From contig CAWEMM010000012.1 of NCBI GenBank assembly GCA_963810095.1, positions 256,001-320,000 on the forward strand: a stretch of 64,000 nucleotides of DNA, read 5' to 3'. How positions within the stretch are numbered: the stretch's first letter is position 1; each line of letters begins with the position of its first letter. Both the position numbers and the translations under genes were made by a program. Shown piece after piece: positions 5,500-26,618 of this stretch. The notes beneath the pieces are model-generated. The model did no database searches. It was not told the DNA's origin and saw only the letters and a program-made list of their open reading frames with translations. The stretch comes from an uncultured Chloroflexia bacterium. Its GTDB lineage: Bacteria > Chloroflexota > Anaerolineae > CG2-30-64-16.

Positions 5500-7865
5500 T
5501 CGACCTTCCCCGCGCCCCGCGCATCATCCCGCCGAGTCTCCGGACGGGATTTCCGCTGGCTGCGGGCGTCCTGGCCGCGCTGGCGATGGCGGCTCTCTAC
5601 ATCACGGCCGTTGCCGAACCTCGGTTGATCCCGTTCGCCCGACTGTTCGCGTTTCTCCCCGTCGGGCTCTCGTCCTATAGCCGCCGCAACTGGCTCCCCG
5701 GGCTATCCTACACGGCGCTCTTCGGCTTCACATTCATCTGGCAGGCGGGGTGGACCGCGTTCGCGGGCGACCCTCATGCCGATGTTGCCGGCGCACTCAG
5801 CTCATCCCTTCTGCTGCTCGGCACGTCGCTTGCGCTGCACAGCATTGCGGCGGCCCACGGCACCCGCGAGGCGCTGGCCGACGCTGCACGGGAGCGGGGA
5901 GAATTGCTCGAGCGAACCACGAGCCTCGACCGCGTCGCCTGGTTCGTGTCGCAGGAGGCCATGGCCGACCTGCGTGCCGAGGACGCGGGCCTGATGGTGC
6001 GCAACCCGGTCGATGAGCGGTGGGAGTTGTACACCCGGCAGACGATCGTGCCGGCAGCGCAGGAACCGATAGGTGGGCCGCTGCGCTTGACCGATTGGCT
6101 GGCCGGCCGCGAACGCGAGACCATCATCGACGATCTTTGGTCGGACAGGCGCTTCGAGGGGGACGACCGCTGGCGGTCGCTGCTTGCCAAGCCGCTGCGC
6201 GATCCCGGCGGCCGGCTGCTGGCCGTCCTCGTGCTGACGCACACGTATCCCGGCATGTTCGGACCGGAAGACATCACCGCGCTCGAGCGGCTGGCCGGGT
6301 CTGCCGAGACCGCACTCGGGCATGCCAGCGCCTACGAGCGGGCGGGTTGGGCGTCCGAGCGCCTGGCTCGGCAGCTCGCAGCCATCCAGAGAACCGCACG
6401 CGAGCTGAATGCGGAACTCCAGCCTGAAGCCATCGCCGGGCGAACACTTGACTGCGCGATGGAAATCACCGGCGCGGACGCGGGCGCGATTCTCGTCGAG
6501 GCCGGCGAGCTTCCGGCCGCTTGTGCGCAGCACGACGGGGGGCCTGGGCGACCCCTCGCGTCAACTGCTGCGCGCAGCTTCTGCCGAGACCCGAGCCAGC
6601 CTGGAAGAGGGCGAGGCGGATGGCCTGCTCCTCCCGTCCGCAGGCAGCCGGCTGCTTGCGCCCATCCGCCGGGAATCGCGACCGTTTGGCGCGATCGTAC
6701 TCGAAAGTGCCACGACGGGTGCGTTCAATAGTCAGGACGTGCAGGCAGTCACAAGTCTCACGAACCACGCCGCCGTGGCGCTCGAAAACGCCCGGCTCTT
6801 CGCTCAGATCCAGGCAGAACGGGAAAAGTCGCAGCAGATTGTGCTCAACATCGCCGACGGCGTGCTGACGCTGGACGCCAGTCGGCGCCTGACCAGCCTC
6901 AATCCCGCCGCCGAGCGCCTGGTGGGGCGGGCTGCCGGCGACGCGCTGGGCCAGGGCTTGTGCGAGCTGCTGGATTGCGGCGCAGAGGACTGCCCCGGGG
7001 CCTGTCTCCAGGCTGGAGAGGATCGTGTCCGGCGAGGAAGGCCTCGAGCGCCGCTGGCGGCGCAGATCAGACGACGAGACGGGTCCACTGCTGAAGCTGA
7101 GCGCAGGGCCCCTTCTCCTGCCCGAGCGTGGCGCGGTGGTCTTGCTCCACGACGTCACCCGCGAGGAGGAGTTGGCCCGGTTCCAACGCGAGCTGGTGTC
7201 GACCTTCTCCCACGAGCTGCGCTCGCCCGCTGGCAAACATCGACGCCGTGGCCGACCTGCTGCTGGCAGGCAGCGAACCGGAGCGGAACGGCCGCTGGCG
7301 CGAGATGCTCGAGCTGCTCAAGCAGCAGAGCCACCGCCTGGCGGGCCTGGCCGAGCGAACGCTGGACGTGGCCCGGCTGGACGACGGCCGCTGGCGCCTG
7401 GAGCCTCGGCCGCTGCCCGCAGCCAGGACGGCCGAGGAGGCCCTCGAGCGCTGGCGCTTGGGCTTGCCCGGTCACATGCTGTGCCTGGAGGCCGCGGCGG
7501 ACGCCGGCTGGGTCTGGGCCGACGAGGTGGCCGTCAACACCGTGCTGGATAACCTGATCGACAACGCGGCCAAGTATTCGCCTCCGGGCACCACGATCAA
7601 GGTCTGCGTGGGCGCGGGCGAGCCGGGTTTCGTCGCCTTCGCGGTGGAAGACCAGGGACCCGGCATCGCGCCCGAGCAACGGTCACGCGTGTTCCAGCGC
7701 TTCCGCCGGGGCGACGCAAGTGATTCGCAGCGTGTGTATGGCTATGGTCTGGGCCTCTACGTGTCCGAGCGCTTGGTTCAGGCCATGGGCGGGCGGATTT
7801 GGGTCGAGCCGGGACCGGTGGCAGGGAGCCGCTTTGTGTTTACGCTGCCGGTAAGAGAGGGGTAG
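5496..7865 (+). CDS. Membrane sensor histidine kinase with two GAF domains and PAS (frameshifted)
   Basis: N-terminal TMs; GAF motifs RSLLAKPL, AAVALENARLF; PAS IADGV..LNPAAERL; H-box FSHELRSP; N-box LDNLIDNAAKYS; G1 EDQGPGI; G2 GYGLGLYV. Confidence 0.9.
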
Positions 7866-7869
7866 TCAC

Positions 7870-8551
7870 GTGAAGCTCCTGGTAGTCGAGGACAACACCA
7901 CCCTCAACGACCTGATCTGCGAATACTGCAAGGGGCAGGGCTACGAAACGTTCGAGCGCGTCGACGGGCGAGGACGCGCTGAAGCTGGCCGAGATGTGTC
8001 AAGCCCGATCTCGTCCTGCTCGACGTGATGATGCCCGGCATGGACGGCTGGGAAGTGATCAAGCGCCTGCGAGGCACATCCGATGTGCCGGTGCTGTTCC
8101 TGACGGGCAAAGGCACGGGCGAAGATGTCGTCCAGGGTCTCAAGCTGGGCGCGGACGACTACATCAAGAAGCCGGTGAGCATGGAGGAGCTGGGACTGCG
8201 GGTTGCGGCTGTGCTCAGGCGCTCGAACCGGGAAGAGACGCCCCTTGCGCAGTTCGACGACGGCCATTTGCACATCGACATGGCGCGGCGGCTGGTGACC
8301 CTGGGGGGCAGCTCGTCAAGCTGACGCCGACCGAGTTCCGGTTGCTGAGCTATCTCGTGGCGAACCGCAGCCGGGCCGTGCCCCGCCAGGAGCTGCTCAC
8401 CGAGGTCTGGGGGCCTTCCTACGCCGAGGACGTTTCAAACCTGCAGGTCTACATCCGCTACCTGCGCGAGAAGCTGGACGACACGGGCGATCCGCCTCGG
8501 TATATCCACACGACCTGGGGGGTGGGCTACCGGTTCGGGTCGGGCAAATGA
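7870..8551 (+). CDS. OmpR/PhoB-family response regulator (frameshifted)
   Basis: [59 protein letters not shown]. Confidence 0.92.
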
Positions 8552-8577
8552 CCGGGTAATGGGCGGATTGTCACAGA

Positions 8578-8630
8578 GGATTTCTAAGAAATTCCAAAGG
8601 ATCATTTCAGTGGTGTCTCATGGTATAGTC
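8578..8630 (+). promoter_or_regulatory. Putative flp promoter: imperfect direct repeat plus extended -10
   Basis: ATTTCTAAG / AATTCCAAAG tandem about one helical turn apart, then TGGTATAGT; SD AAGGAG before ATG 8713. Confidence 0.45.
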
Positions 8631-8712
8631 TGGGCACAAAGGTAAGTCAATCCTGTATGAGTAATCCTGCTTAAGTAGAATTACCAACCGAACCACCAGA
8701 GAAGGAGACACC

Positions 8713-8932
8713 ATGTTGACCCAGTTCTACTTCAACGTCTACAACTACCTGAACAACCTGCTCCACCGCGAAGAGGGCCAGGACCTGGCGGAGTATGCGA
8801 TCCTGCTCGGCCTGATCGCGCTTGTCGGTAATCGCTGTGGTTACTGCTCTTGGCGGCCAGATCAGCAACTATCTTCAACGAACATCGGTACCACCTTGGC
8901 CAGCGCTGGTATTCCGGCCGGCGGACAGCTGA
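8713..8932 (+). CDS. flp: Flp family type IVc major pilin (frameshifted after hydrophobic helix)
   Basis: Leader ending REEG^QDLAEYAILLGLIALV (Flp G..EY motif), strong SD; 3' end approximate. Confidence 0.9.
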
Positions 8933-8970
8933 GTCACGCGACCGCGGCCCGTAGTGCGGAGGTTTCGCAG

Positions 8971-9016
8971 CGAGGGCGGGCACAGCCATGGGCGGCCCTG
9001 CCCTCGTGTGTCTTTC
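8971..9016 (+). terminator. Hairpin after flp (possible terminator/mRNA stabiliser)
   Basis: CGAGGGCGGGC...GCCCTGCCCTCG followed by TGTGTCTTT. Confidence 0.4.
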
Positions 9017-9094
9017 GTAGAAGTGTCGCGACGCGCATCGCCAGGAGACCTCCGGGCGACGTCGTGCGGCACCTGTTGGCAGTCGAGCAATCCT

Positions 9095-9125
9095 TTGACA
9101 CCCTGTGCGGCGGTCAGGCTATACT
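9095..9125 (+). promoter_or_regulatory. Putative sigma70 promoter for tadE-cpaB operon
   Basis: TTGACA 9095-9100 and TATACT 9120-9125; the 19-bp spacer is long, but the region is indel-prone. Confidence 0.4.
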
Positions 9126-9261
9126 CATAGAGTCGCTCAGAGATGGAGACCTGACCGCCCCGGTGTCTGACATGGCCACTCGTGCATTCGTTGTCCGGTC
9201 GTTTGGAGTTTCAACGATGATGATGGCTGTGCCTGACCTTCAGTACCGGCGTTGCACTAGG

Positions 9262-9680
9262 ATGCACGCGAGCGCGGGCAGGACCTGGCCGAGTTCGCCA
9301 TCGTGCTGCCCGTCCTGCTCCTGCTGATCCTCGGCATCATCGAGTTCGGCATCCTCGTTTACGACTACAACACGATCTCGAACGCGGCGCGCGAGGGCGC
9401 GCGCTACGGCATCGTACACCCAAGCACGAACGGTAACGGTACGTGCGCCGCGCCGGGAGCCAATAGCATTCTGACTGCGGCCTGTAACCTTACCACCGCC
9501 CTTGTGCCCGGGGAAGTAATCGTTACGACGACCAATTGTTCGAGCAACGGTCCCCTGGGGTGCCTGACGGTCGAGGTCACGTACGACGCATCGCTAATCA
9601 CCGCGCCCATCATCCAGGCGGTTGGGGGCTCGGGCACGATCACCATTACCACATCTGCAACCATGGACAAAGAACAATAA
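9262..9680 (+). CDS. tadE: TadE/TadG-like minor pilin
   Basis: ERG^QDLAEFAIVLPVLLLLILGIIEFG..NAAREGARYG; start approximate. Confidence 0.9.
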
Positions 9681-9689
9681 GGAGCACTT

Positions 9690-10478
9690 ATGGCACGCAC
9701 GCGCGGATGCATCTGGCTGGTTGCCGGCGTCATCGTCGCGCTGCTGGCGGGCGTCGTCGGCTTCGTCGCCCTCCGGGGCGCGCAGAACCAGCAGGCGCCG
9801 CAGGCCGCGCAGGCCGGCGGGCGCCACTGTCAAGGTGGTGACGGCGGCCCAGGCCGTGCCCATCCGCACGCTGCTCACAGACCAGATGCTGGCGGTCAAG
9901 GACATGCCCGTCCAGGTCGTGCCCGAGGCTACGTCGCCGACCCGGCGCAGGCGGTGGGCAAGATCGCGACCACCGAACTGGCGGCCGGCGAGATCCTGCT
10001 GGCCAGCCGGCTGGTCGATCCCGACGTGGTCGCGGCGAACGGACGAGATGGCGCTGGTGATGAACCGAGGACCAGGTGCTGCTGGCGTTCCCGGCGAACG
10101 ACCTGATGAACGGCCTGGGCGTCCTCAAGCCCGGCGACCACGTCGACCTGCTCTTCTCGATGACCTTCCCGGACCGGACCGGCGGGCGCGGAGGGCGAGA
10201 ACAAGGAACTGGTCGCATTCAACGCGCTGCAGAACGTGACGCTGGCCGCGATCGTCGGCGGGCAGCCGGACGAGAACGGCAATGCCGGCCAGGCGAAGGC
10301 GCTGCTCCTGACCATCACGCCGCAGGACGCGCTGACGCTGAAGTACCTGAAGGATGCCGGCGCGGTGATGGACGTCGTGCTGCGCGCTCCCGGCGCCGAG
10401 CAGCCGTTTGAGGTCGAGCCGGTGGACATGGACCGGCTGATCAACGAGTACCGGATTCCGGCGGCCATCGGGCGGTAA
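9690..10478 (+). CDS. cpaB: Flp pilus assembly protein CpaB/RcpC (frameshifted)
   Basis: N-terminal TM, SAF domain VVTAAQAVP..GKIATTELAAGEIL, LKPGDHVDLL, LTITPQDA, VVLRAPG. Confidence 0.88.
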
Positions 10479-10550
10479 TGCGATCGCGCAACGCTGCGAG
10501 CGTAACTCGATGCGGCCTGAGTAGTACGATCACGAGACGAGTGCGGAGGG

Positions 10551-11797
10551 ATGATTGGCTAGTCTGGTTCCCGGCGAGACGCTGCGGGTCCTGCTGGTCA
10601 GCACCGAAGAGGAAATGCGCGAGACGGTCGGCGACAGCCTGGCAAGGCTCGGCGGGCGACCACCGGCTCTACTGGGTGTCGCAGCCCGACCTCGCGCCCG
10701 GCCGCGCCAGCGACCTGATCCCGCACGTCATCCTGGTCGACGACGAGCTGGCGGGCGCCAGCGTGACCGGGCTCATCGGCCTGCTGGCCCAGCGCGCGCC
10801 GCGGGCCGCCATCCTGGCGCTGGTCGAGCCGCGCGAGCGTCAGCACGGCGCAGGCGGCCATGCTGGCCGGCGCCCGGGGCTTCCTCCTCAAGCCGCTCGA
10901 CGCGCGACGAGCTGGGCAACGCGCTGCGCCAGGTGCTGGCGCAGCGCGGACCCGACCGGCGTGCCGGACGCACCAGCCGCTCGTCTCCGGCCGGATCATT
11001 GCGTTCTGCGCGCCGAAGGGCGGCACCGGGCGCACCACCCTCGCCATCAACACGACGATCGCGCTCCAGCAGATCAGCAAGCGGGCGGCCGTCCTCGTGG
11101 ATGCCGACTACGCCGCGCCGGCGCTCGACGTCGCGCTGAACCTGGACTCCAGCCGCAACATCGTCGACCTGCTGCCCAAGCTCGCCCGGCTCGACGCCGA
11201 TCTCGTGTCGGGCGTGCTGGCCACGCACGCGTCGGGCATCCGGGTGCTGCTGGCCCCGCCCCCCGCCGACCTGACGCACCCGATCTCGCTGCCCCAGGTG
11301 CAGCAGGTGCTGGCAACGCTCAAGCGCATGTTCCCCTGGGTCGTGGTCGACCTCGGCCTGCCGATGGACGAGACGGCCTTCGCCTTCCTCGACAGCGCCG
11401 ACCGGATCGTCATGTCGGTGCTGCCCGAGATGGTCGGCCTGCGCAACACCCGCCTGATGCTGGACCAGCTGCACGAGCGGGGCTACCCCTCGGAGAAGAT
11501 CTGGCTGGTGCTGAACCGGGCGGACATGCGCGGCGGCGTCTCCGTGCCGGACATCGAGGAGCGGCTGCGCGATTCGCGTGCGCTACAAGATCCCCGACGA
11601 CCAGGCGCTGGCGACGTACAGCGTCAACCGGGGCGTGCCCGTTGATGATGAGCCACGGCGACAGCCGGCTGGCCAAGGCCGTCCGCGGCTTTGCGACCGA
11701 GCTGGCCCGCGAAGTGATGGGCCCGGACGCGCTCGACGAGCCGTCCAACGGGCTGTTCGCGCGCTTCCGCGGCCGCCCGGCGGCGGCGGAGTCCTGA
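10551..11797 (+). CDS. cpaE: CpaE/TadZ receiver + MinD/ParA-like ATPase (frameshifted)
   Basis: Degenerate receiver (AMLAGARGFLLKP), deviant Walker A PKGGTGRTT, VVVDL, LVLNR. Confidence 0.88.
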
Positions 11798-11800
11798 GCC

Positions 11801-12760
11801 ATGACGAGCATGCCGCTGGCGTTCAGCATCCTGGTCGCCGGGGCCGTGCTGCTGGGCTTCATCGGGCTTTGGCGCCTGACGCACCGCGAAGATGCCGTCG
11901 AGGCGCGCCTGCGGCAGTATGGCGGCGCCGGACCGCAGTCGGCGCCTGGCGCCGGCGGTGCAGCGCGGAGCGAAAGCGGTTCGGCGGCCTGAACCGGTCG
12001 CTCGGCCGCATGAGCCTGGGCGAGTCGATCGCCGACCGGCTGTCGCGCGCCGACCTGCCGCTGACGGTCGCCGAGTTCGTGCTGATCGGCTGCTCGTTGG
12101 CGGCGGGCTTGGCGCTGCTCGGCTGGCTGCGCGGCGGCGTCCTCTTGGCTGCGGTCCTGGGCATCGCCGGCTTGTTCCTGCCGCTCATCTACCTCAACAG
12201 CGCGGGCCAGCAAGCGCCGCGAGGCGTTCACCAGCCAACTGCCCGACGTCCTGACCCTGCTGGTCGGCGCGCTGCGCGCCGGGTACGGCGTGACCCAGGC
12301 CATCGACATGCTGGTCGACCGGATGGCCAAGCCGGCGTCGGTCGAGTTCGGCCGGGTGATGCGGGCCGTCAACCTGGGCATCCCGGTGAACCGGGCCTTG
12401 AACGACATGGCGGACCGGGCTGGCAGCGACGACCTCTACCTGATGGTGACTGCCATGAACGTCCAGGCCGAGTTGGGCGGCAACCTGGCCCAAATCCTGG
12501 AGACGATCACGGAGACGATCCGGGAGCGCATCCGCATCAAGCGCGAGATTCGGGTCCTGACGTCGCAGCAGCGCATGACCGGCTACCTGCTCGCCGCCTT
12601 GCCCATCGTCGTTCGGGCTCGTCATCTCGTTGATCAGCCCGGACTACCTCGCGCCGCTGTTCGAGCCCGGGATCGATGCGGCTCGTGCTGGTCGGCACGT
12701 GTGTTCATGATGATCGTCGGGTTCCTGGTCATCCGCAAGATCGTGGACATCGAGGTCTAG
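11801..12760 (+). CDS. tadB: TadB (T2SS F family) platform protein (frameshifted)
   Basis: FTSQLPDVL..ALRAGYG, ELGGNLAQILETITETIRERIRIKREIRVLTSQ, ends KIVDIEV. Confidence 0.92.
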
Positions 12761-12764
12761 CGCG

Positions 12765-13752
12765 ATGGACATCGCACGCGATCATCGAGCAGTTCGGGCC
12801 CTTGTGGTCGCCGGTGACCTTTGCGGCGCTCCTGGCGCCTGGCGACCGCGCTTCGCCTGGATGGCTTTCCGGCCGCCGCCCCCGCCGCGACGTCTCAGAC
12901 CGCCTCAACGACTACCTCGACCGCGGCGACATCGTCATCGAAGAGGACCTGCGCGCAGCCGTTCTTCCGCCGCGCCATCTGGCCGGCGCTACGCGGCGTG
13001 CTGCGCTTCCTGGGCCGGCTCCTGCCCAATCGGAACCTGGAGGCGACGCGGCAGAAGCTGCAGCAGGCGGGCAACCCGGGCGGGCTCAGCGCGCTCGACT
13101 TCTACGGCATTCGGGTGCTGGCCGTTCTGCTGCTTCGGCGGCCTGATCTTCTTCTTGAGCCTGCAGCAACCAGTCGCTGCTCCTGGCGCTGCGCAATGCG
13201 CTGTTGGGCTGCGTGTCTGGGCTTCCTGCTGCCCGTCTACTGGCTGCGGACCAAGGTCCGGCAGCCGCAAGAACAAGATCCTGCGCGCCCTGCCCGACGC
13301 CCTGGACATGCTGACGATCGGCGTGGAGGCAGGGCTGGCGTTCGAGTCGGCGATGATCCGGGTGGGCGAGAAGTGGGACAACGCGCTCACGCGCGAGTTC
13401 CAGCGAGCGGTGGCCGAGATGCGGGTGGGCATGAGCCGCGAGGATGCGCTGACGCGGATGGCCGAGCGGTGCGGCGTGCCCGAGCTGTCGACCTTCGTCG
13501 CCGTGCTGGTCCAGTCGAGCCAGCTCGGCGTCAGCATCGCCCAGGTGCTGCACACGCAGGCCGAGCGAGATGCGCCTGAAGCGGCGGCAGCGGGCCGAGG
13601 AACTGGCCCGCCAGGCGGGCATCAAGATGATCATCCCGCTGGCGCTGTTCGTGCTGCCGGCGCTGTTTATGGTCATCCTGGGCCCGATCGTTCCCGCGCT
13701 GCTGGACGTGTTCAGTGTTGTTGGCGGACGAGCCTGGGCGGCGCTCCCGTGA
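12765..13752 (+). CDS. tadC: TadC (T2SS F family) platform protein (frameshifted)
   Basis: ALPDALDMLTIGVEAGLAFESA, QLGVSIAQVL, RRQRAEELA..KMIIPLALFVLPALFMVILGP. Confidence 0.92.
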
Positions 13753-13796
13753 GGCAGAGACGTGAGTGCGATGAGCTGCGATATGAGGATGCGCGT

Positions 13797-15693
13797 ATGG
13801 AAGCTGATTTCGCGACACCCGGCTCGCGGCCGGGACGATCCGCTTTACGATGAAGGGCTGGCGCACGTGCAGGCCGGCGAATGGACCGCGGCGCTGCGCT
13901 GCTTCGAGACGCTGGCCGAGCGCTACCCGGGCGACGCGGATGTCGTCCGGAACCTGGACCAGACGCGGTTCCGCGCCCGGCTGGACAAGGAAACCAAGGT
14001 CAAGCCGAAGGGCGTTCACGATTCGCTGGGGCCGCGTCATCCGCCGCGTGCTGATCGTGGTGCTGCTGGCCGCACTGGCCTATGCGGTCGTTCTTGCTCG
14101 TCACGACGCAGATCGCCCCGCGCTCCAGCGCAAAGCGCGCGAGCGGAACGCGTTCCTGGCCCTGGTGAAGAACTGTAAGGACATGGCCGAGGGCGTCGAC
14201 TTCGCCGGCGCTCGCGCCGCCTGCCAGGCCGTGCTGCAGAAAGATCCGAACAACACGGATGCTCCGGCGCTCCTCCTCGTCATCGACAAGAAGGAGCAGG
14301 AGAAGAAGGCCTGCGACGAGGCCGAGGCGCTGCTGAATAAGGGCGACGACCAGGCCGCGCTCGACGCGTTCACCACGATCCAGCTCAAGAACCCCGGCGC
14401 CTGCAAGGCCGTCGAGCGCATCCAGGTCCTGAAGGACCGCCTGGACGTCGCCGGCGTCCTGAAGCTGTGCCGCGACGCCGCAGCCGCGGACAACTACGAG
14501 CAGGTGACTAACTTCTGCGAGCAGGTGCGAACGCGTAACACGACCCTCGAGGCCGAGGCCATCGCGGGCTACCTCCACAAGGCATACTTCGCGCTCGGCA
14601 AGGCGATGGTCGAGCAGAAGCCGCCCCAGCTCGAGCAGCTGCCGCTCGCCCTGGACGATTTCACCAAGGCGCTTTCATTTGCGCCAAACGACCCGGAGGC
14701 TCAGGCCGAACAGCGGCTGGCAAGCCAGTACCTGGCCGGCCAGCAGGCCCTGGAGGTGGGACGGCTCGACGACGCCATCGCCCGGCTCGCGCCGGTGGTC
14801 GAGCAGCGCCCGAAATACCTGGATGGGCTCGTCGTCCAACGTCTCTACGACGCCTACTTGCGCCGGGGCGACCAGTACCGCGACGCCGGCGACCCCAGCC
14901 TGGCGTACCACAACTATGACCTTGCGGCACGGCTGCCGGGCATCGATCCGGCCAGCGCGATCAACCGCCGCGACAGTGTCGCCGGCCTCCTGACACCGAC
15001 GCCCACGCCGACCAACACGCCGACGATCACGCCGATTCCGACTGCCACGCCCTACGTCCCGCCCAAGCCGACGCCGCTGCCCACGCCCCCGCCGCCGCTC
15101 GCAACCTTGCGAGGCAAGATCGTCTTCTTCTCGGCCAAGCCCGAGCAGGAGGGCATGTGGGTCATGAATCCGGACGGAACGGGGAAGCGCTACCTGGGGC
15201 CGGTTACCGAGCAAGATGCAGAAGGAATACGACGAGCTGCGCAAGAAGGAGACCTTCTCGCCCGACGGCCGGTTCCACGTGTACGCGCTGAAAGGCAACG
15301 GCGACGTGACCGTCCAGGTCTACTACCAGGGCAAGGACCGGGACGGCTACCTGGTGACCCAGCGGGTCACGAATTTCTCGCAAGATCTGCCTACGACCCG
15401 GTCTGGGCGCCCGATGGCAGCCGGATCGCATTCGTCAGCCCCGAGCAGGGCAGTGACGATATCTGGATCGATCTACCCCGACGGCACGGACGCGTGGAAC
15501 TACACGCAGACGAAGGACCGCGTGGGAGTGGGACAAGTGGCCCACCTGGTCGCCCGACTCTCGCCAGATCGCCTTCTGGTCGAACCGGGAAGGGACCAAG
15601 CAGCTTTACGTCATCGACGCCGACGGCCGCAACCTGAGAAAGATCAGCGGCGACGCGCCGTGGGACGAGTACAACCCGTTGTGGATCAAGTAG
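13797..15693 (+). CDS. Membrane-anchored TPR protein with PT-rich linker and C-terminal TolB/PD40 propeller (frameshifted)
   Basis: N-terminal TPR, one TM (VLIVVLLAALAYAVV), helical repeats, PTPTPTNTPT linker, DPVWAPDGSRIAFVS and PTWSPDSRQIAFWSNR repeats. Confidence 0.8.
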
Positions 15694-15837
15694 ATGAGGC
15701 CGTTCTTCCACGGAGACAGGAGAACCGAAGGCACAATGACGCAGCACCCTTCATTGAGCCCTTTGTGGACCTTTGAGGCTTGGCGTCTTCTTGTGAGCAT
15801 GGATGCACTGACCAGACCCTGATTGACGAGGTGAACC

Positions 15838-17193
<1,356 letters not shown>

Positions 17194-17202
17194 TCGTGAC
17201 CT

Positions 17203-17830
17203 GTTGTTGGGGGCCGTCGGGCCCCCCGCCATAGGGCTTGGATCCTTTACTTTTGTTGGGGGCCGTCGGGCCCCCAACGCCCCCGACAGGGGGCTGCGCC
17301 CCCTTGACCCCTAAAGGATCACGGGGATATGCGGTTTCTGCCGCAAAGCGTAGGCTGTGGTCGACGTGGGCGGGCCTCCCGGCAGCGGCTCCAATAAAAC
17401 TGATATTTCGGGACAGAGCCGCAGAAGGCCCCGGGTAGCCTGGACTTCCGACTCCTACCCGGGCTCACTATTGCCGAGCAGCGTACCTTTTTGGGGGTCT
17501 CGGGGGCGAAGCCCCTGAGGCGGCGGGGTGGCGGGGGCCAGCCGGCCTCCTGCCAGAAGAAACCAAGATGCGAAACGCTGGCGGGGGCCAGCCGGACCCT
17601 GCCAAAAGCGAAGGAAACCAGGAGCTCTGAGGGCGAACCCGCTCCAACGGCAGGCCGGCCTTCGATCCCGCACGAAATCGGCATTTGCGCCAAGCAAGCA
17701 GGCAACGCCGCCGTCGCCCGCAGCACCCGGGTCCTACCGGCGCACAACACCGCCAGGGGCGTAACCTTGGGGGGTCTTGGGGGCGCAGCCCCTAAGGCGG
17801 GGGTGTCGGGGGCGAGCCCGCCCCGCAACA
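17203..17830. repeat. Cluster of GC-rich palindromic REP-like units
   Basis: Direct repeat TGTTGGGGGCCGTCGGGCCCCC x2; units TTGGGGGTCTCGGGGGCGAAGCCCCTGA and GGCGGGGGCCAGCCGG shared with 23150-24000. Confidence 0.75.
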
Positions 17831-17869
17831 CAGGAAAAGGATCAGCGATGCCGACAGTACTAGGAAACC

Positions 17870-18912
17870 ATGCCACAACCACTAACCGCGCTGCAGCTCG
17901 AAGCCACCGGCCCGGCCACCCTGGCCGAGGTCATGGAGGAGGTCGAGTTCCAGGCGCAGAACGGCAAAGCCGAACGCCTGCGTCCCATCCCGACCGGCTT
18001 CACGCCGCTCGACGACATCCTCAACGGCGGCCTGCGTTCGGGCGAGCTCATGATGGTCGGCGGCACCTTCGGCGTCGGCAAGACCATCTGGGCCCTCCAG
18101 GTGGCCCGCAATGCCGTGGTGAACGACGCGACCGCCCACCGCGCTGTACATCTGCTATGAGCACGACCGGCCCCATCTGCTGTCCCGCCTGCTCTGCATG
18201 GAGAGCGCCGAGCGCGGCTATCGCGAGGACGCACTCACGCTCAAGAAGCTGGCAGACCTCACCCTGTCGTCGCAGGGCGGAACCGGCGGCCTGATCGCCC
18301 GCCTGCGCAAGGTGCCGCGCTACGCGCCGATCATGCAGGCGCTCGACTCCTACGGTGACCGCCTGATCCTCGCCAAGGCGAGCGGCGACCACACCGGCCT
18401 CGACCAGGTGCGCACGTGGGTGCAGGATGAGGTGGCCGCCGGCGCCACCCGGCTGCTGGTCGTCGTCGACTACCTGCAGAAGATCCCGGTGCGTCTCAAC
18501 ACCCTCGAGCCCGAGACCGAAGTCACCACTTATCTGACCCAGGGCCTGAAAGAAATGGCCATGGCCCTGGGCGTGCAGGTGCTCGCGATCGCCGCGTCCG
18601 ACCGGATCGGCCTGAAGTCGAAGCGCATGCGGCTGGCCGATCTGCGCGGGCAGCTCCGCGCTCCAGTACGAGGCCGATATCGGCTTGATCATGAATAACA
18701 AATACACCATCATCAGTCGCGAACACATGGTGTATAATGTGTCACAAGCAGATGCGATGCGTGGCTGGGTAGTCATGAGCGTGGAGAAGAACCGGGCCGG
18801 CCGCAACGCGGTCGACATGGAATTCCAGCTCGACGCGTCGCACTTCCGGATGGTATCGAAGGGCGACTTCGTCCGCGAGCGTCTGGTGGACGAAAAGGTC
18901 GTCCTGGAGTAG
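17870..18912 (+). CDS. DnaB-like SF4/RecA-fold ATPase, C-terminal domain only (frameshifted)
   Basis: IPTGFTPLDDILNGGLRSGELMMVGGTFGVGKT, CYEH, VVDYLQ, LKEMA, DLRG(S)SALQYEAD, EKNRAG; about 345 aa with no DnaB N-terminal domain. Confidence 0.85.
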
Positions 18913-18923
18913 TCGCCGCCTTG

Positions 18924-18981
18924 GCATCCTGAGCGAAGGGCTGGGCGTCGCCTGGGCGACGCCCGCACGCAGTCGAAGGAT
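18924..18981 (+). repeat. Palindromic repeat family GCATCCTGAGCG-(hairpin)-CGCAGTCGAAGGA
   Basis: Same ends at 25789-25840 (reverse), 25852-25901, 26452-26497 and 34896-34946. Confidence 0.85.
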
Positions 18982-19003
18982 CGCCCACGGAGAGCGACAT
19001 CAC

Positions 19004-20803
19004 ATGGCCGAATTGCTCGCAGCTGAGGGATGGGTCAAGGCAGGCTCGGCAGGGTCATACCTGAGAGAAAACCTGCCCAGCGACTACATCGTCGTGGCAG
19101 ACGCGCGCGCGTGTCAGGCCAATCGCTGGCCGCTGCGGTCGTCGGCCACGGCGCGCTCTTCCTCATCGAAGACCTCAACGCGGAGCCGGGCGAGGCCGCG
19201 GCTTTGCCCGCGTCCGGTGGCAAGAACGGGCACGGTCCGGTGGGCGCAGCCGAAAACTTCCTCAAGGACGAATTCCCGGCGCTCAAGCTGTTCCTCATGG
19301 CCGTGCGCGGCGCGCGCGACTGGGCCGAGGGCCCCGTGACCTGGCGGGTTTCTGAACCGCTGGAGTGGGCGGATCAGCCGCTGGCCGACGTGATCGTGGC
19401 CGCCGACAAGGAAGTCGTCGCATCGCTCGACGACGACCAGCGCGAGGAGCTGGCCATCGGGCTCCGCGACCGGCAGCTGACCGCCACCCAGGCCGCCAGC
19501 AAGCCGTTCATGTTCCCCTCCGGCGGCGCATTTCGCACGGGCACCCGCGTCACCAGCGTCCGCCAGGCGATCGACCACATGGACCGCTACCCCTCAGACG
19601 GCGCGCAGGTGCTCCGCGATGGCACGCTGGCAGCCTGGTTCGAGGACGAAGGCGCGCACCATCTCGCGGGCCTGGCCCGGGATGTGACCCGCCAGTCGAA
19701 GACCGACACTCGCATCATGCTCGAGACCTTCCTCCTCGGCACCGGCCTGGTCGAGCGTCCCCGCCTGGTAACCCGGCCCGCCCGGGTGGAGCTTGGGCTG
19801 GTCGTCCAGGGGCAGAAGGTGGCGCACCGGCTCCGGCTTGAGAACGGAGCGCGGCAGCCGGGGCTTCCTCTTCGGCAGCGTCACGGCGTGCGGCCCGTGG
19901 TTGCGGGTGGAGCCGCGGGAGTTCGCCGGGCACGCCGGTCGAGTTAGTGGTCACGGCCGAAACCGGCGCCCTGCCGATTTCGTCCGCATCCTACCTCTCA
20001 GACGTCGAGATCAGCTGCAGCGGGAGCGTCGAGCCGGTCTGCGTGCCCGTCACCGTGTCCGTCGTCGCAGCGCCGCCCGGGTTCATCCGCCTCGGCGTCC
20101 GGCCGCTGGCCGGGTTTCTGCTCGGCGCCCTGCTCGGCGCGTTGATCGCGCTGCTTTGGCGGGCCACGGGTCTCGTCGGCGACCACAACCTGCTCCTCTG
20201 GACGACCGCGCTGGCCGCCGTGTGGGGGCTGGCGGGCGGGGTCCGTGCCTTGCGCCAGCCGGGAGCCTGGCCGACCCGTGTCGCTCTGCCCCGTTGGCTG
20301 CTTAAGGTGCTCGCATGGAGCGCCGGCCTCGCCCTCCTGGCCGCGGTGATCATGGAAGCGTGGCGTCTTGGGCTGGGCGGTGGGCTTGAGTTCGAGGGAG
20401 TGTCGCTGGCAGCCGCGGCAGCAGCCGGCGCGGCATTCGGTTTCGCGGCCGCCACCCTCGACGAGCTTGCGCACAGCCGGCATGCGTCCGACCCCGGCTA
20501 CGTGCACGGCAAGCGCTCCAGCCGGCGGCCGGTGCTCTTCGCCGTGGCAGGCATCGTGCTGGTGCTGGCCGCACTGCTCACCCCCCGGGTGATTGCGACC
20601 GCAGGTGAACCGGAGCGAGGTGCAGGCCGAGGCGGCGCCCGGCCCGGAACTGGGCTGAGGCCCGCTGGAACGAGCTGACGATCGATGGACAAGCTGATCT
20701 ACAGCCTGACGCTCAGTACGACCAGAAGGAGCCCGGGGTCGTCGGGCCAGCCCACGCCCGGCCCGCTGATAAGCTCCCCGAGCGGCAGAAGCTGGATCAC
20801 TGA
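19004..20803 (+). CDS. Multidomain membrane protein: degenerate NERD-like N-terminus, helical domain, Ig/BACON-like domain, ~5 TMs (frameshifted)
   Basis: YLRENLPSDYIVVAD..AAVVGHGALFLIED resembles NERD; GRGFLFGSV..PWLRVEP..VPVTVSV is Ig-like; hydrophobic C-terminus; end approximate. Confidence 0.55.
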
Positions 20804-20822
20804 TGTGCGGCGGGAGGAACGT

Positions 20823-21218
20823 ATGAGGCGAGCTGAACGGGGGGCGAACTGGTCGAGTTCGCGATCGTCGTGCCGCTGCTTGATCCTGTGATCTGCGGGA
20901 TCGTCGATGTCGGCAGCGCTTCTACGGGTACATCGTGGTCGACGAATGCGGTGGGCGAGGGAGCACGGTACGGCGCACGTGGCCGGACGACACTGCGGGA
21001 ATTATCCAGCGGGTGAAGGACGAGATGGGGAACAGCAGGTGCGCTTCTTTGCCACCTGTAGAGACGCCCCGATGAGCAAGCCGGCGGTCAGCTCGAGGAG
21101 CATTCGAGGTCAGCGTCATGTGCAAGTTCGAACCCATAACACCGTTCATTGCGGCTTTGGGACCGGAGGACAGTTGACGATTTCCAAGCACGGCAGCGAA
21201 TATCAGGGCATCTCATAG
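20823..21218 (+). CDS. tadE: Second TadE-like minor pilin (heavily frameshifted)
   Basis: Reconstructed MRRAERG^ANLVEFAIVVPLL..GIVDVG..TNA.REGARYG. Confidence 0.7.
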
Positions 21219-21282
21219 CTCCTGCTGTCAATGGGCAGCTCCGGGACGTTCTGCGAAGGGCGGAAGGAGAGAGAAAGATGAT

Positions 21283-22320
21283 ATGCATTGCGGCGAATCC
21301 GGGCAGACTCTGGTGCTGGTAGCAGTGTTGCTCGTCGTCCTTTTGGGCTTTACCGCTCTCGCCATCGATGTGGGGAGCCTATACGGAGAGCGGCGGCGCA
21401 TGCAGAACGCGGCCGACGGGGCTGCTCTTGCAGGGCGCAGAAGAATTGTGTCTGGGCAAAGGCGGAAGTGCGCGATAGCCATGGCGAACAGACTATGCCA
21501 CAACGAACGGGGCGACAGTGGGCAACCCCTGTTCCACTCCAATCGGAAGTAGCAACCTGTCTCCATCACGGTTACCACCGGGAAGACCTCTGGCACGTTC
21601 CTCGGGGCGGTTCGGCCCAACGTCGGCAGAGGTAGCAGCGGTCGCGTCGGCAAGATGTGAAGCGCCTGGCACTGGCATCCCAACGTTCCCGATGACGATC
21701 AAGCATCAACAGTATCAAGGATCTTCAGTGCGGCGACACCGAGTTAATCACGGTCGAGAATGCACCTGTCATGTCCCCCTGCCCCAGCTCATGCGACTGT
21801 GACCATGTCTTCACGGGTCAATCACACCGACACGAACTCGGAGCGCGGACTGGTTCGAAGCGTCGAACATCTGCGGGACAGGAACCGAGGTCCGACTGCC
21901 AGCATTAAAGACGCCATGCCGTGGGGTAGCTGGCAAAATGACCGGTATTCACGTCGGGAGTTGCCTTGATCCAAAAACCGGAGCGACACGGGCACGTCGG
22001 GGCAACGGAAAGGGCAAGGACCTGAGGATTGGCTCGACCTTCAGACAGGCGACACCGCGAAGGTTGTCTTCCCGCTGTTCGACCAATTTAACAACTCCTG
22101 TGGCTCGGGTTGCTTGGCATACAGGGTGAGCGGTTTTGCTTGTGTCGATCTTGACCTCTCAACTGCCAGATACGACCGAAGACTGTGCCAGCCGCAGCGA
22201 GCAAGGTTGACCGGGCCTCAAACAGCAGACGACGAGCGGCGATCGCGCAAGTTAGACCGGGCTCAGCGGCGGAAATCCCCGGGGGACGGGACGATCTCAC
22301 GCCGCCCAGATACCGTATAA
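21283..22320 (+). CDS. tadG: TadG-like pseudopilin (heavily frameshifted, end uncertain)
   Basis: ESG^QTLVLVAVLLVVLLGFTALAIDVGSLYGERRRMQNAADGAALAG. Confidence 0.75.
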
Positions 22321-22386
22321 TGAGTGTCCAGCTGATCGCCTGGCGCTGTTGCCGCCTCAGCGGCGTCTTCACCGGGGAGAAGCGGC

Positions 22387-23041
22387 ATGGCAGCAGATAT
22401 CCTACAGAAGGGGCGAACGGCCGCGGCACTCCAGCGGGCGAGCGGCGTTTCCGGTCATCCAAGTACGCTCACCCTTCCCTGGTACTTCTTCACCAAGGGC
22501 CGCTGCCCGCACTGTGGCGAGCAGCGGCCTCTTCGCGCCCCGCTCCTCGAACTGGCGGTGATCGCCGCGTTCGTCTTCATTGCGTGGCGCTTTTGGCCCG
22601 ACCCCGTTCGGCGATCGCGTCGCTCTACTGGGCCTACGCCTGGTTCCTGCTGACCGTGCTGGTCATCGACCTGGAGCACCGGCTGGTGCTGAACGTGATG
22701 ACCCTGCCCGCCGCCGTCATCGCCCTGGCCGCCAGCTTCCTCCCGGCGCGCCCACGCCGGTCGAGGCGCTGATCGGCGGTGCGGGCGCATTCGTCGTCTT
22801 CTTCCTCATCGCCCTGATCGGCCGGGGTGCGATGGGCATGGGCGACGTCAAGCTGGCCGGCGTGATCGGCCTCATGCTCGGCTATCCGCTCGTGGTGCCC
22901 GCCCTGCTCGCCGGGATCCTGCTCGGCGGCCTCGCGGCCGCCCTCCTGCTCATCACCCGTCGCGCCACCCGTAAAACCGCCATCGCCTACGCGCCCTACC
23001 TCTGCGCCGGCGCGCTCGCGATCCTGGTGTTGATGAAGTAG
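22387..23041 (+). CDS. A24 prepilin peptidase with N-terminal Zn-binding remnant (frameshifted)
   Basis: GRCPHCG, IDLEHRLVLN, GMGDVKL, IAYAPYL. Confidence 0.88.
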
Positions 23042-23149
23042 TAGGCCCGACCGCGGCGGTCCGGCCCGCAGTGGACCTGCGTTTCATGCGCATCGCGCCA
23101 CGAACGCCCCCTACGGCGACGCGACCCCCTCTTTATGGGCATTAACCTG

Positions 23150-24000
23150 GCGAAGGGCGTAACCTTTGGGGGTTTCGGGGGCGAAGCCCCTGAAGCGGGG
23201 GCGTTGGGGGCAAGCTTGCCCCCAACAATCTAAACCCGCTCGGCTACACACCGCGATTCTGTGGCTCGCGAGATGTGCAAGGCCCGCCTCGCCGACGACC
23301 AGCGTTCTGTGTGCAACGTCCGGCCAGCGCCCCCCGGTGACGATGCGATCCCGCTCTTGACGGCGGTCAACCTCGCTAGGGGCGTCGCGATTGGGGGTCT
23401 CGGGGGCCAGCCGGCCCCCGCCGAAAGAAACCTGCGGCGAGGGTGGCAGGGGCGAGCCTGTCCTCCGCCACGCACGAGACCAGCATTCGTGCCAGGCCAT
23501 TACAGCAACGCCACCGGCGCCAGCACACCTGGCGCCCACGACGGCTCAGCACCGCCAGGAGCGTGCCCTTTGGGGGTTGCGGGGACGAGCCGGCCTCCGC
23601 CGCAAGCAACCCTGAGGCGAGGGTAGCAGGGACGAGCCTGCCCTCCGCCTCGCACGAGACCAGCATTCGTGCCAGGCCATTACAGCAACGCCACCGGCGC
23701 CAGCACACCTGGCGCCCAGTGCGACTCAGCACCGCCAGGAGCGTGCCCTTTGGGGGTCTCGGGGCGCGAAGCCCCTGAGGCGAGGGTGGCAGGGCCGAGC
23801 CTGCCCTCAGTCCTCGCACGAGAACGGCATTCGTGCCGGGCCATTACAGCAACGCCACCGGCGCCAGCACACCTGGCGCCTACGACGGCTCAGCACCGCC
23901 AGGAGCGTGCCCTTTGGGGGTCTCGGGGGCGTGCCGCCGCAGCGGGTTGCCCCTTGAGGCGGGGGTGGCGGGGGCCAGCCGGTCCCCGCCGAAAAAAACA
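23150..24000. repeat. Mosaic array: REP-like hairpins interleaved with three near-identical ~105-bp units
   Basis: Core CGCACGAGACCAGCATTCGTGCC...GGCGCCAGCACACCTGGCGCC...GCACCGCCAGGAGCGTGCCCTTTGGGGG starts at 23471, 23651 and 23815. Confidence 0.9.
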
Positions 24001-24015
24001 ATTCCGGAGCACACC

Positions 24016-24382
24016 ATGACGCCACCAAGCAAAACCTACCAACTCGTCAACACCACGAACGGCACGACGGTCGCCCAGACAACCCGCCTCGCCGACAACC
24101 CCTGGACCAGCTTCAAGGGGCTGATGGGCGCCGCGCCCCTGCCCGCCGGGCGAGGCCCTCCTCATCACCCCCTCCTCCTCCATCCACACCCACTTCATGC
24201 GCTTCGCCATTGACGTTCTTTATGTCAATAAAGACGACATGATCGTCGGCATCGACCGCGACCTGAAGCCCTGGCGCTTCGGCCACTTCTACAAGGGCGT
24301 CAAATACGTCGTCGAAATGTCCTCCGGCGGCGCCAAAGACTGCCAGGTCGGCGACAGGATCGAGCGAAAGTCTCTGGACTAA
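24016..24382 (+). CDS. DUF192 domain protein (one frameshift)
   Basis: ADNPWTSFKGLMG..GEGLLI..SIHTHFMRFAIDVLYV..LKPWR..VVEM. Confidence 0.88.
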
Positions 24383-25509
24383 GTCAGGGGCGTCTCGGTG
24401 ATCGTGCGGACCATCGCCCACAGGTTCTCCATCGGCGTGTCAAGCTGCACGTGGTGCGTCGGGCCCGATGATCAGGCCCCCACCTCGGCCCACGGTCGCC
24501 AGTCGCTGGCAGACCTCGTCCCGCACCTGCTCGGGCGTGCCAAACGGCAGCGTGTACTGTTCGTCGATCGTGCCCCAGAAGCACAACCGGTCCCCATACT
24601 GGCGCTTCAACTCGGCCGGGTCCATGCACGCGGGCTGGATCGGGTTCAGGACGTCGACCCCCACCTCGATCAACTCCGGGATGATCGGCGTCACGTTGCC
24701 GTCCGAGTGGTAGGCCACTTTCAGCGCCGGGTTGATCCCCTTAATCGTGCTGATGAACTCGGCCATCCGGGGCTTGAGGAACTTGCGCCAGTGCCGCGGC
24801 GAGAAGAGCATCCCCTGCTGCTGCCCCACGTCGTCGCCGATCCAGATCATGTCGACGCCCATCTCCGTGAGGCGCTTCGCCGCCGCAAGGTGATAGCGGA
24901 AGGGGATTTCGAGAATCTCGTCGGCAAGGTCGGGATCGCTCACGAAGTCGGACAGCAGCCGCTCATACCCGCGCAGCGCCCAGGCGCACTCGAAGATCGT
25001 AGTGACCGTGACGCCGACAATCCAATATTCGTCCTTCAGCGTCCGGATCACCCGCTCGGCCTCCACGTAGAGCTCGGGCCGGTTTGGGTCGGGCGCGCGG
25101 TATTGCGAGAGCGCGCCCTTGTCCGCCAGCGGATGGCCGGTGATTTCCGTGTACTGCCCCACCCCGTAAGGCGTCTCGTACGGCACGTTGTGAAAGCCAA
25201 TGCCCCACTCGTCCACATAGTCGTGCTCCGCGGCATAGTACGAGTTCGCCCACCCCACCGACGTCTGGAGCATGTCCTCGTCGAGGGCCATTTCGAGCTC
25301 GTAGGTGTTGCCCCCGCCGTGCGGGTTGTGCCCCGCCACATGTTCGTCAACCGCATCGCTATGGGGCCGGTCTCCCCGTGGCGCGTCCCCTTCAGCGCCA
25401 GGTCCGCACGCAGGCGCTCGGCAAACTCGGGCGTGAAGCTGATCGACATGGGGCAGCGGTCGGGCACGCGCCCGTTCAGCGCGGCCCAGACCCGTTCGCG
25501 ATGTTTCAT
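24379..25509 (-). CDS. Uroporphyrinogen decarboxylase / MtaA-like family protein (frameshifted)
   Basis: MKHRERV, YVDEWG, WIGDDVG, YHSDG, LNPIQP, FWGTIDEQ..LPFGTP, GGLIIGP(T)HHVQ. Confidence 0.85.
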
Positions 25510-25788
25510 GGTCACCTCGTATAATCGCATGATCCGAACCCTCGGAGGACCACGCCCCCGTGGGTCTCATATCTTCGCGTCAAGCCAAGGGAATTGGACA
25601 CTGATTGAAAGGATCCGACTGATTCTCATGATCTTTTTCGAAAAGGACAGTGCAGATCAGTTCAATCAGTTGCATCAGTGTCCCATTTCAGATGAGTGTA
25701 AACTGCTCGCAACGCGAGGTTGCGCATGTAGTGCGAGCTTTCCACTTTGCGATCAGTTTAGGTACAAGGACACTGATTCTGTCGGGTC

Positions 25789-25901
25789 GCATCCTTCGAC
25801 TGCGGCACGCCAGCTGCGCTGGCGCCTCCGCTCAGGATGCTTCAAGCTCAGGCATCCTGAGCGGAGGGCGGTCCGCAGGAGCGCCCGCAGTCGAAGGGTG
25901 C
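25789..25901. repeat. Inverted pair of the GCATCCTGAGCG...GTCGAAGG repeat
   Basis: Reverse copy 25789-25840 and forward copy 25852-25901. Confidence 0.85.
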
Positions 25902-25931
25902 CAAGCGTCATGGTTCATCAGATTCGCTATT

Positions 25932-26277
25932 CACGCATGGTTCCTGCCGGTCCCGCCTCATCCCCCGCACAGTCACTTATCCGGGCGAACGTGTACCCGC
26001 AGCGTTGCCTTTGGGGTTCCAAGGGGCGCAGCCCCTGGTCGGGGGCGGCGGGGGCAAGAGCGCCCCCGCCAACCTAGTCGCCAGGCGGCGCACGGCAGAG
26101 ACCGGTCCCGTCTGATTCTCGGATAGATTCTAAATACACGCATGGTTCCTGCCGCCCCGCCTCATCCCCCGCACAGTCACTTATCCGGCAAACGCGTACC
26201 CGCAGCGTTGCCTTTGGGGTTCCAAGGGGCGCAGCCCCTGGTCGGGGGCGGCGGGGGCAAGAGCGCCCCCGCCAACC
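25932..26277. repeat. Two ~140-bp direct repeats ending in GC hairpin doublets
   Basis: CACGCATGGTTCCTGCCG...CTTTGGGGTTCCAAGGGGCGCAGCCCCTGGTCGGGGGCGGCGGGGGCAAGAGCGCCCCCGCCAACC at 25932 and 26137. Confidence 0.9.
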
Positions 26278-26451
26278 AGTCATCATGCATAAGCCGATTA
26301 TTTCACTGTGTTCGGGGATCAGGAGCAGCCGGGGCAGGTCCGCCCCTTCGCAGCCGCTGCGGCAGATATGGCGAGGGTAGCACGACTTCGTGCTGGGGTC
26401 AAACACCTGGGTGGGCGGGACGCGTTTCAGAGTGGGGGCAAGGTCAGCGGA

Positions 26452-26497
26452 GCATCCTGAGCGGAGCGGAGTGAAACGTAGCGCAGTCGAAGGATGC
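26452..26497 (+). repeat. GCATCCTGAGCG...CGCAGTCGAAGGATGC repeat copy
   Basis: Ends match other family members. Confidence 0.85.
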
Positions 26498-26618
26498 GGC
26501 GCGGGTGAGACATGACAGGACGCAAACGACGCAGACAGGGATGAATCGACAGGACCTATGTCAATAGCGGCCCGTAAATCCACCCCATCGGCGTCATCCG
26601 CGTCCTGTTCGTTCGTTC

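Follow-up and report, generated by a model that had tools for sequence, protein, structure and literature searches.

The gene at positions 17870 to 18912 (forward strand) of the window, a 64,000-nucleotide stretch of contig CAWEMM010000012.1 from an uncultured Chloroflexia bacterium, lies in a Tad pilus locus. Read through its three frames in the assembly, it is predicted to encode 346 residues comprising the linker helix and RecA-fold motor domain of a superfamily 4 (SF4) helicase, without the primase-binding N-terminal domain. The product is tentatively interpreted as an accessory DnaB-type ring ATPase of the Tad-like (type IVc) pilus of Chloroflexota, most likely a translocase of single-stranded DNA (ssDNA).

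The read-through protein matched Pfam DnaB_C (PF03796) at 72.5 bits against a cut-off of 27, and relatives from other loci scored 74 to 94 bits on the same model. The Pfam scan gave no match to the DnaB N-terminal domain (PF00772) in the 346-residue protein, which begins at the linker. KaiC (PF06745; 28 bits, over residues 40 to 85 only) and AAA_25 (27 bits) were marginal P-loop matches. The replicative DnaB equivalog TIGR00665 was scored at 68.2 bits, below its cut-off of 385, and all NCBIfam DnaB models scored far under their equivalog cut-offs. RadA/Sms (TIGR00416) reached 21.9 to 31.8 bits against a cut-off of 403, in the P-loop region only. When a profile of the family was compared with solved structures, DnaB helicases gave the best single-domain matches (84 to 88 bits), followed by KaiC (55 to 62 bits) and RadA (33 bits).

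Fold comparison was carried out with an AlphaFold2 model of an intact orthologue (mean predicted local distance difference test score, pLDDT, 83.4). The nearest fold was the C-domain of E. coli DnaB (Z 29.5; root-mean-square deviation 2.6, 258 residues aligned), followed by Aquifex DnaB (Z 28.0), T4 gp41 (Z 26.1), Twinkle (Z 23.9), T7 gp4 (Z 23.5), RadA (Z 22.8), KaiC (Z 21.4), FlaH (Z 17.7 to 18.0) and RSF1010 RepA (Z 17.8). The linker helix is kept, with model helix 24-36 aligning from DnaB residue 145. In the family alignment, Walker A (G70, K71, T72), H1a (E97), Walker B (D200), H4 (L258-R259-x-S261) and the arginine finger (K306-x-R308-x-G310) are invariant relative to the host's own DnaB. 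With every catalytic motif kept, the ATPase is apparently catalytically competent. H3 diverges (AASDR, against LSQLSR in DnaB), and the family further departs from DnaB by two insertions and by its conserved C-terminal tail, FVRERLVDEK. When the two most conserved parts of the family alignment were chosen as search patterns, LRGSSA[LVI]xYE of H4 was one of them. The first-pass annotation, made from the sequence alone, had called the protein a C-terminal-only DnaB SF4-type ATPase; Pfam, motif alignment and fold search agree on this assignment. In the comparison with DnaB, RadA and KaiC that it had proposed, the protein is nearest DnaB, and the family still splits from canonical DnaB with support of 100.

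A word-indexed protein search returned 1141 relatives at E <= 0.001 among 7999 scored candidates. The best 120 are 324 to 390 residues long and 63 to 90% identical; 118 of these 120 cover at least 97% of the query, and three 324-residue matches cover 94%. An intact database protein of 346 residues is 90% identical over 100% of the length, a likeness well outside what chance would produce. Those of the best relatives that carry names come from metagenome genomes of Anaerolineae/Chloroflexota, in which intact orthologues of 340 to 350 residues are common. They are named in the databases as "AAA family ATPase", "DnaB-like helicase C-terminal domain-containing protein" or, by JGI, "replicative DNA helicase". 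The last name misleads for these genes, and the window ATPase is not the replicative helicase. An intact dnaB of 446 residues (364 bits on DnaB_C) was located on contig C6 of the same assembly (6.13 Mb, 16 contigs, completeness 88.5%), and the first-pass supposition of a full dnaB elsewhere is thereby borne out. RadA above its cut-off and the DnaB N-domain were both present in 4/4 good genomes carrying a family member; in a fifth carrier genome, 76% complete, neither was detected. Since canonical DnaB and RadA coexist with the family, it represents a third paralogue and replaces neither.

The order of the Tad locus is histidine kinase, response regulator, Flp, TadE, CpaB, TadZ, TadB, TadC, TPR/PD40 protein, CpaF and the ATPase, followed by a protein of approximately 600 residues, TadE, a TadG-like protein, prepilin peptidase and DUF192. 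The cpaF gene was directly upstream of the ATPase gene in 5/5 distinct genome loci (L008, which is the same contig as L033; L009; L010; L034; L036), and L035 has an identical arrangement on the opposite strand. A metagenome scan with the family alignment returned 577 relatives; the 80 best loci were retained, a sample biased to high scores. Neighbours were counted from tblastn searches in which L008 and L084 supplied the Tad protein queries, ORF calling being crude in this high-G+C DNA (opposite-strand shadow open reading frames, ORFs). Thirty-three metagenome loci were at least 47% identical, and 27 of them had more than 360 bp of upstream flank; cpaF was directly upstream in 25 of the 27, the exceptions being L091 and L112. 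Downstream of the ATPase gene, the approximately 600-residue protein followed in 22 of the 33 loci, five ran straight to TadE/TadG and six were too short. Gaps or overlaps between cpaF and the ATPase gene measured 0 to approximately 60 bp, a spacing that suggests one operon. The 47 loci at 38 to 46% identity had any tad gene in only three cases (L119, L120, L148).

A FastTree phylogeny was made from 94 family members and 13 canonical DnaB proteins (SH-like supports only; several long branches flagged). All 28 cpaF-adjacent rows fell in one 30-row clade with support of 98, and the remaining two rows had too little flank. The position in the Tad locus, as the first-pass annotation had proposed, is therefore conserved and not due to chance, on the evidence of the metagenome loci, the genome loci and the support for this clade.

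Tad genes were also recorded next to family members outside the 30-row clade. On isolated branches, L084 has a whole tad operon adjacent in divergent orientation, L085 has TadE, TadG and CpaB nearby, L119 has cpaF, tadZ, rcpC and tadE nearby, and L120 has tadB/C directly upstream and DUF192 downstream. In a clade of 18 rows from the families f34 and f57, TadZ or TadE/G was within 10 kb in 14 rows, the genomes being close kin and not independent. The first-pass annotation had mentioned similar proteins beside actinobacterial tad genes; among Actinomycetota, only one metagenome genome (L011) showed such an arrangement, a 36%-identical relative immediately after tadC. The source of the window itself belongs to Chloroflexota (Anaerolineae, judging from how the nearest database proteins are named) and is no actinobacterium. 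Some further neighbours were recorded. The f34/f57 loci (L068, L076 and others), with a 37 to 39%-identical relative that occurs in all or most sampled genomes of these two families, have a TadG-like gene, a response regulator-TadZ pair and an MrfA-type DEAD/MZB helicase within approximately 10 kb. Genes for PMT_2 glycosyltransferases adjoin the ATPase gene in L119 and are found in its vicinity in L084 and L085. DUF192 (COG1430) ends the Tad loci of the window (24125-24379), L088, L090, L105 and L120, with a fusion to a GT87 glycosyltransferase in L088.

In the interpretation preferred here, the ATPase would assemble into a hexameric ring on the cytoplasmic side of the pilus platform, where CpaF or the adjacent membrane protein, which resembles nuclease-related domain (NERD) proteins, may hold it in place. 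The ring would thread single-stranded nucleic acid with ATP, coupling the pilus to DNA uptake or transfer. A nucleic-acid substrate is favoured because of the closeness of the protein to true helicases, the conserved H4 channel loop and the nuclease-related neighbour. The H4 loop lines the central channel in DnaB. The window cpaF was the only T2SSE-family gene detected in the assembly, which is 88.5% complete. The Tad system is thus the one type IV filament system detected there with a potential part in DNA uptake; comEC is also present. Prediction of a complex of CpaF with the ATPase, run without controls, gave a score of 0.00 in two runs, a result that speaks neither for nor against contact between the two.

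The neighbour is encoded at 19004 to 20759 (forward strand, four frames). This protein of approximately 600 residues (603 residues) had no significant match in Pfam or NCBIfam. In the ESM Atlas, the cluster nearest to it (score 0.96) is from Chloroflexota, and 67% of the cluster members carry a NERD domain. An alignment of 13 homologues showed a NERD-like N-terminus with D...ExK-like residues in some, for example ..DAVVVGPQGLFALEIKPWEG.. in L097. The AlphaFold2 model (pLDDT 76.9) comprises an alpha/beta N-domain, a helical domain, a beta-sandwich and long hydrophobic helices, with four to five transmembrane helices in the protein. A Foldseek search with the neighbour returned only a generic PapD/ASH-like beta-sandwich and no NERD or channel match.

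Several observations weigh against a pilus-coupled DNA translocase. DNA binding, ring formation and contact with a pilus protein are all steps that we infer, and conservation of H4 could reflect the mechanics of the ATPase rather than contact with DNA. Genes for comEC and DNA uptake are widespread, so their presence supports the interpretation weakly. The D..ExK residues of the neighbour are degenerate in L008, in L086 and in the window's own subgroup, and its whole NERD-like N-terminus is missing in L105 and L108. A 35-row sister clade (support 99) has flanks without tad genes, and specificity for the pilus therefore does not extend to the whole family. Among f34/f57 members the gene stands beside tilS-ftsH, and cpaF was found no more than 10 kb away in only 1 of the 20 genome loci examined. 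Close orthologues were found in 4/40 related genomes (G004, G012, G022, G023), against cpaF relatives (E <= 1e-30) in 27/40. The rest of the 40 gave weak matches (E ~1e-4 to 1e-7), mostly to canonical-DnaB-like frames of approximately 450 residues, and two had no match. In genome G020 (L166, G020:C9:1-17000), the same unusual order was present with cpaF, 57 bp and then the approximately 600-residue protein, and no ATPase gene; the pilus of an otherwise identical locus therefore works without it. The ATPase gene is accessory, and not core, to the locus. L166 and the ATPase-bearing loci form a natural presence/absence pair. Other class-level relatives have the ordinary order CpaB-TadZ-CpaF-TadB-TadC.

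A broader proposal, speculative but possible, is that the type IV filament machine of some monoderm Chloroflexota has a third kind of motor, in the form of a DnaB-derived, ssDNA-pumping hexameric ring at the Tad platform. Such a ring would dock there, perhaps via the NERD-like membrane protein, and would pump ssDNA in or out. If this is true, the third motor would open the way to transformation or conjugation-like transfer without a ComFA-type or FtsK/VirD4-type motor.

The main alternative to DNA translocation is a ring of the ArlH/FlaH kind, which would depend on nucleotide and act with the CpaF hexamer as its partner or as a switch (assembly/retraction or on/off), with no contact to DNA. 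This is considered somewhat unlikely. It would account for a gene encoded directly after cpaF and for conservation that tracks CpaF far above other proteins of the locus (in L086, CpaF 91% and ATPase 81%, against 49% for the NERD-like protein, N, and 36% for E). FlaH is structurally related, at the Z scores given above. According to the accessible portions of the sources, Tad is of archaeal-pilus descent (PMC12488501, PMC6668835), many type IV pilus loci of archaea also encode KaiC-family ATPases (PMC4858521), and the KaiC homologue ArlH can regulate the archaellum motor ArlI (PMC12488501). The window protein is, however, much nearer to DnaB than to KaiC/FlaH in both sequence and fold, it keeps the DnaB H4 channel loop and arginine finger, and in the sister clades no gene for a pilus ATPase adjoins it.

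A cytoplasmic, pilus-independent role is decidedly unlikely. On this account the protein would be a helicase paralogue of Chloroflexota that works in DNA repair or recombination, on chromosomal or incoming DNA, and its gene would simply have come to rest in the Tad operon of one lineage. Among other Chloroflexota genomes, sampled evenly across the phylum, 44/400 had a full-length relative of 35 to 43% identity, concentrated in two small-genome families, f34 (16/16) and f57. These members are in housekeeping surroundings, either tilS-ftsH or rpoD with lipoyl synthase, and the coexistence with canonical DnaB and RadA in the 4/4 good genomes is in keeping with a repair function. The slot between cpaF and the pilins is nevertheless fixed in 25/27 loci, down to approximately 50% identity, and the tad association recurs in other branches of the family. 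Taken together, these two features make hitch-hiking hard to credit.

Under translation table 11 there is no single continuous ORF at 17870-18912; the longest are 17870-18160 (96 residues), 18198-18698 (166 residues) and 18685-18912 (75 residues), all in different frames. Three-frame translation placed GGTFGVGKT in the first frame (17870-18160), YICYEHD and VVVDYLQK in the second (open 18123-18695), and SSALQYEAD and EKNRAGR in the third (open 18616-18912). The SF4 motifs named in the first-pass annotation were thus all recovered on the forward strand, although in three different frames. Its treatment of 17870 to 18912 as a single gene span overlooked two frameshifts, and its string DLRG.SALQYEAD masks the second frame change. 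Both changes are +1. When the window was compared with a second copy of the gene on contig C16, it proved to have two additional bases that the C16 copy lacks, a C near 18139 within the run CGCCCACC and a G near 18648 within the run CGCGGGC. Read-through was performed with the code GCTN=A; the sole four-letter steps were at 18143 and 18660, and 346 residues were obtained to the stop. In intact relatives the break sites read ..RALYICYEHD.. and ..DLRGSSALQYEAD...

The second copy lies on the 21-kb contig C16, which matches window positions 17801-20697 and 22464-25587 at 90 to 95% identity. Over the ATPase gene the two copies are 95% identical, with 43 substitutions of which 37 are synonymous; judged from this pattern, the gene is under purifying selection. 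C16 has a private insertion of its own, an extra G near 18096 that breaks the frame at residue ~77, and the 1-base insertions of each copy differ. The two insertions that were aligned base by base in the ATPase gene fall in short G/C runs. Short-read contigs were taken from four runs of one study (5 to 7% of sampled words shared) and gave patchy cover of the gene; they may derive from a close relative and not the same strain. Those over 18504-18738 and 18571-18719 (approximately 93 to 97% identity) fell short of the window by one letter each, and the pieces over 19029-19242, 19811-19963 and 16104-16276 by two; among the short-read pieces listed none covered 18139.

Relative to the intact L008 proteins, approximately 20 frame changes, mostly +1, were counted in the Tad locus of approximately 15 kb (window 6823-23041): two each in the histidine kinase, response regulator, CpaF and ATPase genes, four in TadZ, three in TadC, at least two in the TPR protein and three in the gene of the approximately 600-residue protein. 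ORFs of 933 and 950 residues are open at 40 to 58 kb, so that indel density is very uneven along the window; low coverage or a mixture of strains in this part of a long-read assembly may be the cause. L010, from another long-read-style genome, has the same kind of breaks. A PucC-family gene at 36352-37738 (reverse strand) is spread across two overlapping frames and is another likely indel. Both frameshifts in the ATPase gene are likely to be insertion errors of the assembly, with a gene that is probably intact; the alternative is very recent decay. Insertion errors are favoured because of the strong purifying selection, the private insertions in short G/C runs and the shorter contigs from accurate reads.

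That the window copy is a true pseudogene inside a decaying Tad locus is considered improbable. The density of frame changes over approximately 15 kb, set beside the long open frames at 40 to 58 kb, would fit such decay, as would a repeat-bounded insert of approximately 0.5 kb between cpaF and the ATPase gene. The high share of synonymous substitutions against C16, insertions that differ between the copies, their +1 character and location in short G/C runs, short-read contigs one to two letters shorter at several sites, and the similarly broken L010 argue against it. A decaying dnaB fragment, the outcome that the first-pass annotation had set against its own proposal, is likewise contradicted by the intact 346-residue orthologue at 90% identity and the mostly synonymous changes. 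Upstream of the ATPase gene, the C16 copy (1-10213) has an intact 412-residue transposase-like ORF in place of cpaF, of DDE/rve type by sequence reading. For C16 the choice is between a contig from a variant strain and a genuine partial duplication involving the pilin half of the locus.

Chance insertion of a phage, plasmid or defence-island helicase is scarcely credible and largely refuted: DnaB-like helicase families of PHROGs do match (phrog_19 at 79 bits), a 36%-identical relative occurs on an unverified "Bacteriophage sp." scaffold without annotation and an insertion-sequence-type transposase lies upstream of the C16 copy, but plasmid records gave 8 matches only (seven at approximately 25% to ordinary plasmid dnaB and one at 52% over 12% of the query), PADLOC gave no match for the ATPase protein, the flanks of four 20-kb loci held ordinary metabolic genes and no relaxase, coupling protein, integrase or phage genes, no relaxase, integrase or phage genes were among the window ORFs scanned, and the "phage" scaffold has 73.6% G+C and no phage annotation. 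The scaffold (L171, MT839844.1) is a 6.8-kb record from a faecal sample and may be a misfiled bacterial contig. Clustering with prophage or plasmid helicases, a further outcome raised at first pass, did not appear, the plasmid and phage collections giving weak or doubtful matches. The first-pass statement that no phage or replication genes lie nearby also stands for the window ORFs scanned.

All genes of the Tad locus in the window are on the forward strand. The locus is headed by a histidine kinase and response regulator (6823-8536), which are syntenic in orthologous loci, followed by genes for a Flp-like pilin, TadE, CpaB/RcpC, TadZ, TadB, TadC and the TPR/PD40 protein (8692-15690), several of them frameshifted. 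The cpaF/tadA-type pilus ATPase gene (15838-17190) was located by tblastn with the L008 protein in three frames, with a T2SSE match of 148.7 bits. Downstream of the NERD-like membrane protein gene are TadE-like and TadG-like minor pilin genes (20814-22152), the "second pilin set", whose L008 counterparts match Pfam TadE and Tad. The first-pass placement of the ATPase gene between cpaF and this second pilin set is accordingly correct. A prepilin peptidase gene (Peptidase_A24; 22185-23041, two frames) and the DUF192 gene (24125-24379), a repeated feature where such Tad loci end, complete the arrangement.

Between cpaF and the ATPase gene, the window has a non-coding insert of approximately 0.5 kb (17290-17792) with 28-nucleotide inverted repeats at its ends, where orthologous loci have 0 to 60 bp. 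Its G/C-rich sub-repeats recur on contigs C6, C11, C14 and others, and from these features the insert looks like a miniature mobile element. Dispersed repeats of 50 to 190 bp at 25590-26510 and 23150-23230 have dozens of copies at 80 to 100% identity on C2, C6, C7 and C9-C14. Internal direct repeats are present at 23391-23991.

Tad pili are described, in the parts of the literature available, as powered by a single bifunctional ATPase, CpaF. They are needed for transformation in Micrococcus luteus (Denise et al. 2019, PMC6668835), a statement that appears in the accessible text of that paper and agrees with the first-pass annotation, and they are linked to DNA uptake in Liberibacter in the available part of PMC8513845. 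A survey of Chloroflexota type IV filaments found Tad pili in approximately 1,234 of 3,780 genomes, and the accessible portion of its text leaves a DnaB-like component unmentioned (PMC12488501). The encoding of a RecA-superfamily ATPase with a type IV filament motor has a precedent in archaea, according to the part of PMC4858521 available. A literature search, covering main texts and few subscription journals, returned no paper reporting a Tad locus with an ATPase that resembles DnaB or a helicase.

A helicase-derived ring fixed by cpaF would be either a bacterial counterpart of the archaeal accessory ring or the missing motor of Tad-dependent DNA uptake, for which, to our knowledge, no dedicated cytoplasmic motor is known. 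As a large and highly conserved family whose members are easy to express, it lends itself to direct tests of function.

Among known systems, DnaB shares with the window ATPase the fold (Z 28 to 29.5), motifs H1, H1a, H2 and H4, the arginine finger and the linker helix. The window protein differs in having no N-terminal domain, an altered H3 and a place in a pilus operon. RadA/Sms, a DnaB-type helicase active in recombination and transformation, is likewise a RecA-fold ring with a KNRxG-type motif, and no RadA match was seen beyond the RecA-fold part of the ATPase. The zinc-finger and Lon-like domains that presumably belong to the RadA architecture would accordingly be missing here. Compared with KaiC/ArlH, the window ATPase is of DnaB type by sequence and fold and not of KaiC type, and it is a bacterial protein of approximately 350 residues from a Tad locus. 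The trait shared with ArlH/FlaH is a gene for a RecA-superfamily ATPase beside the gene for a type IV filament motor ATPase. ComFA is the cytoplasmic ATPase of DNA uptake in monoderm bacteria and is a superfamily 2 DEAD-box protein. What the window ATPase would share with it is the proposed role, in which ATP drives the movement of ssDNA on the inner side of a competence pilus or channel; the sequences are not known to be related. The actinobacterial Tad-like set TIGR03815/TIGR03816/TIGR03819 also combines a Tad-like system with a helicase-type gene. CpaF of L008 has as its best NCBIfam match TIGR03819, "TadA family conjugal transfer-associated ATPase" (343 bits), its TadZ matches TIGR03815 and its TadG-like protein matches TIGR03816, all three scores being under the curated cut-offs. 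The older label of this set we take to be "helicase/secretion neighbourhood", and its helicase is presumably a DEAH-box protein, not one of DnaB type.

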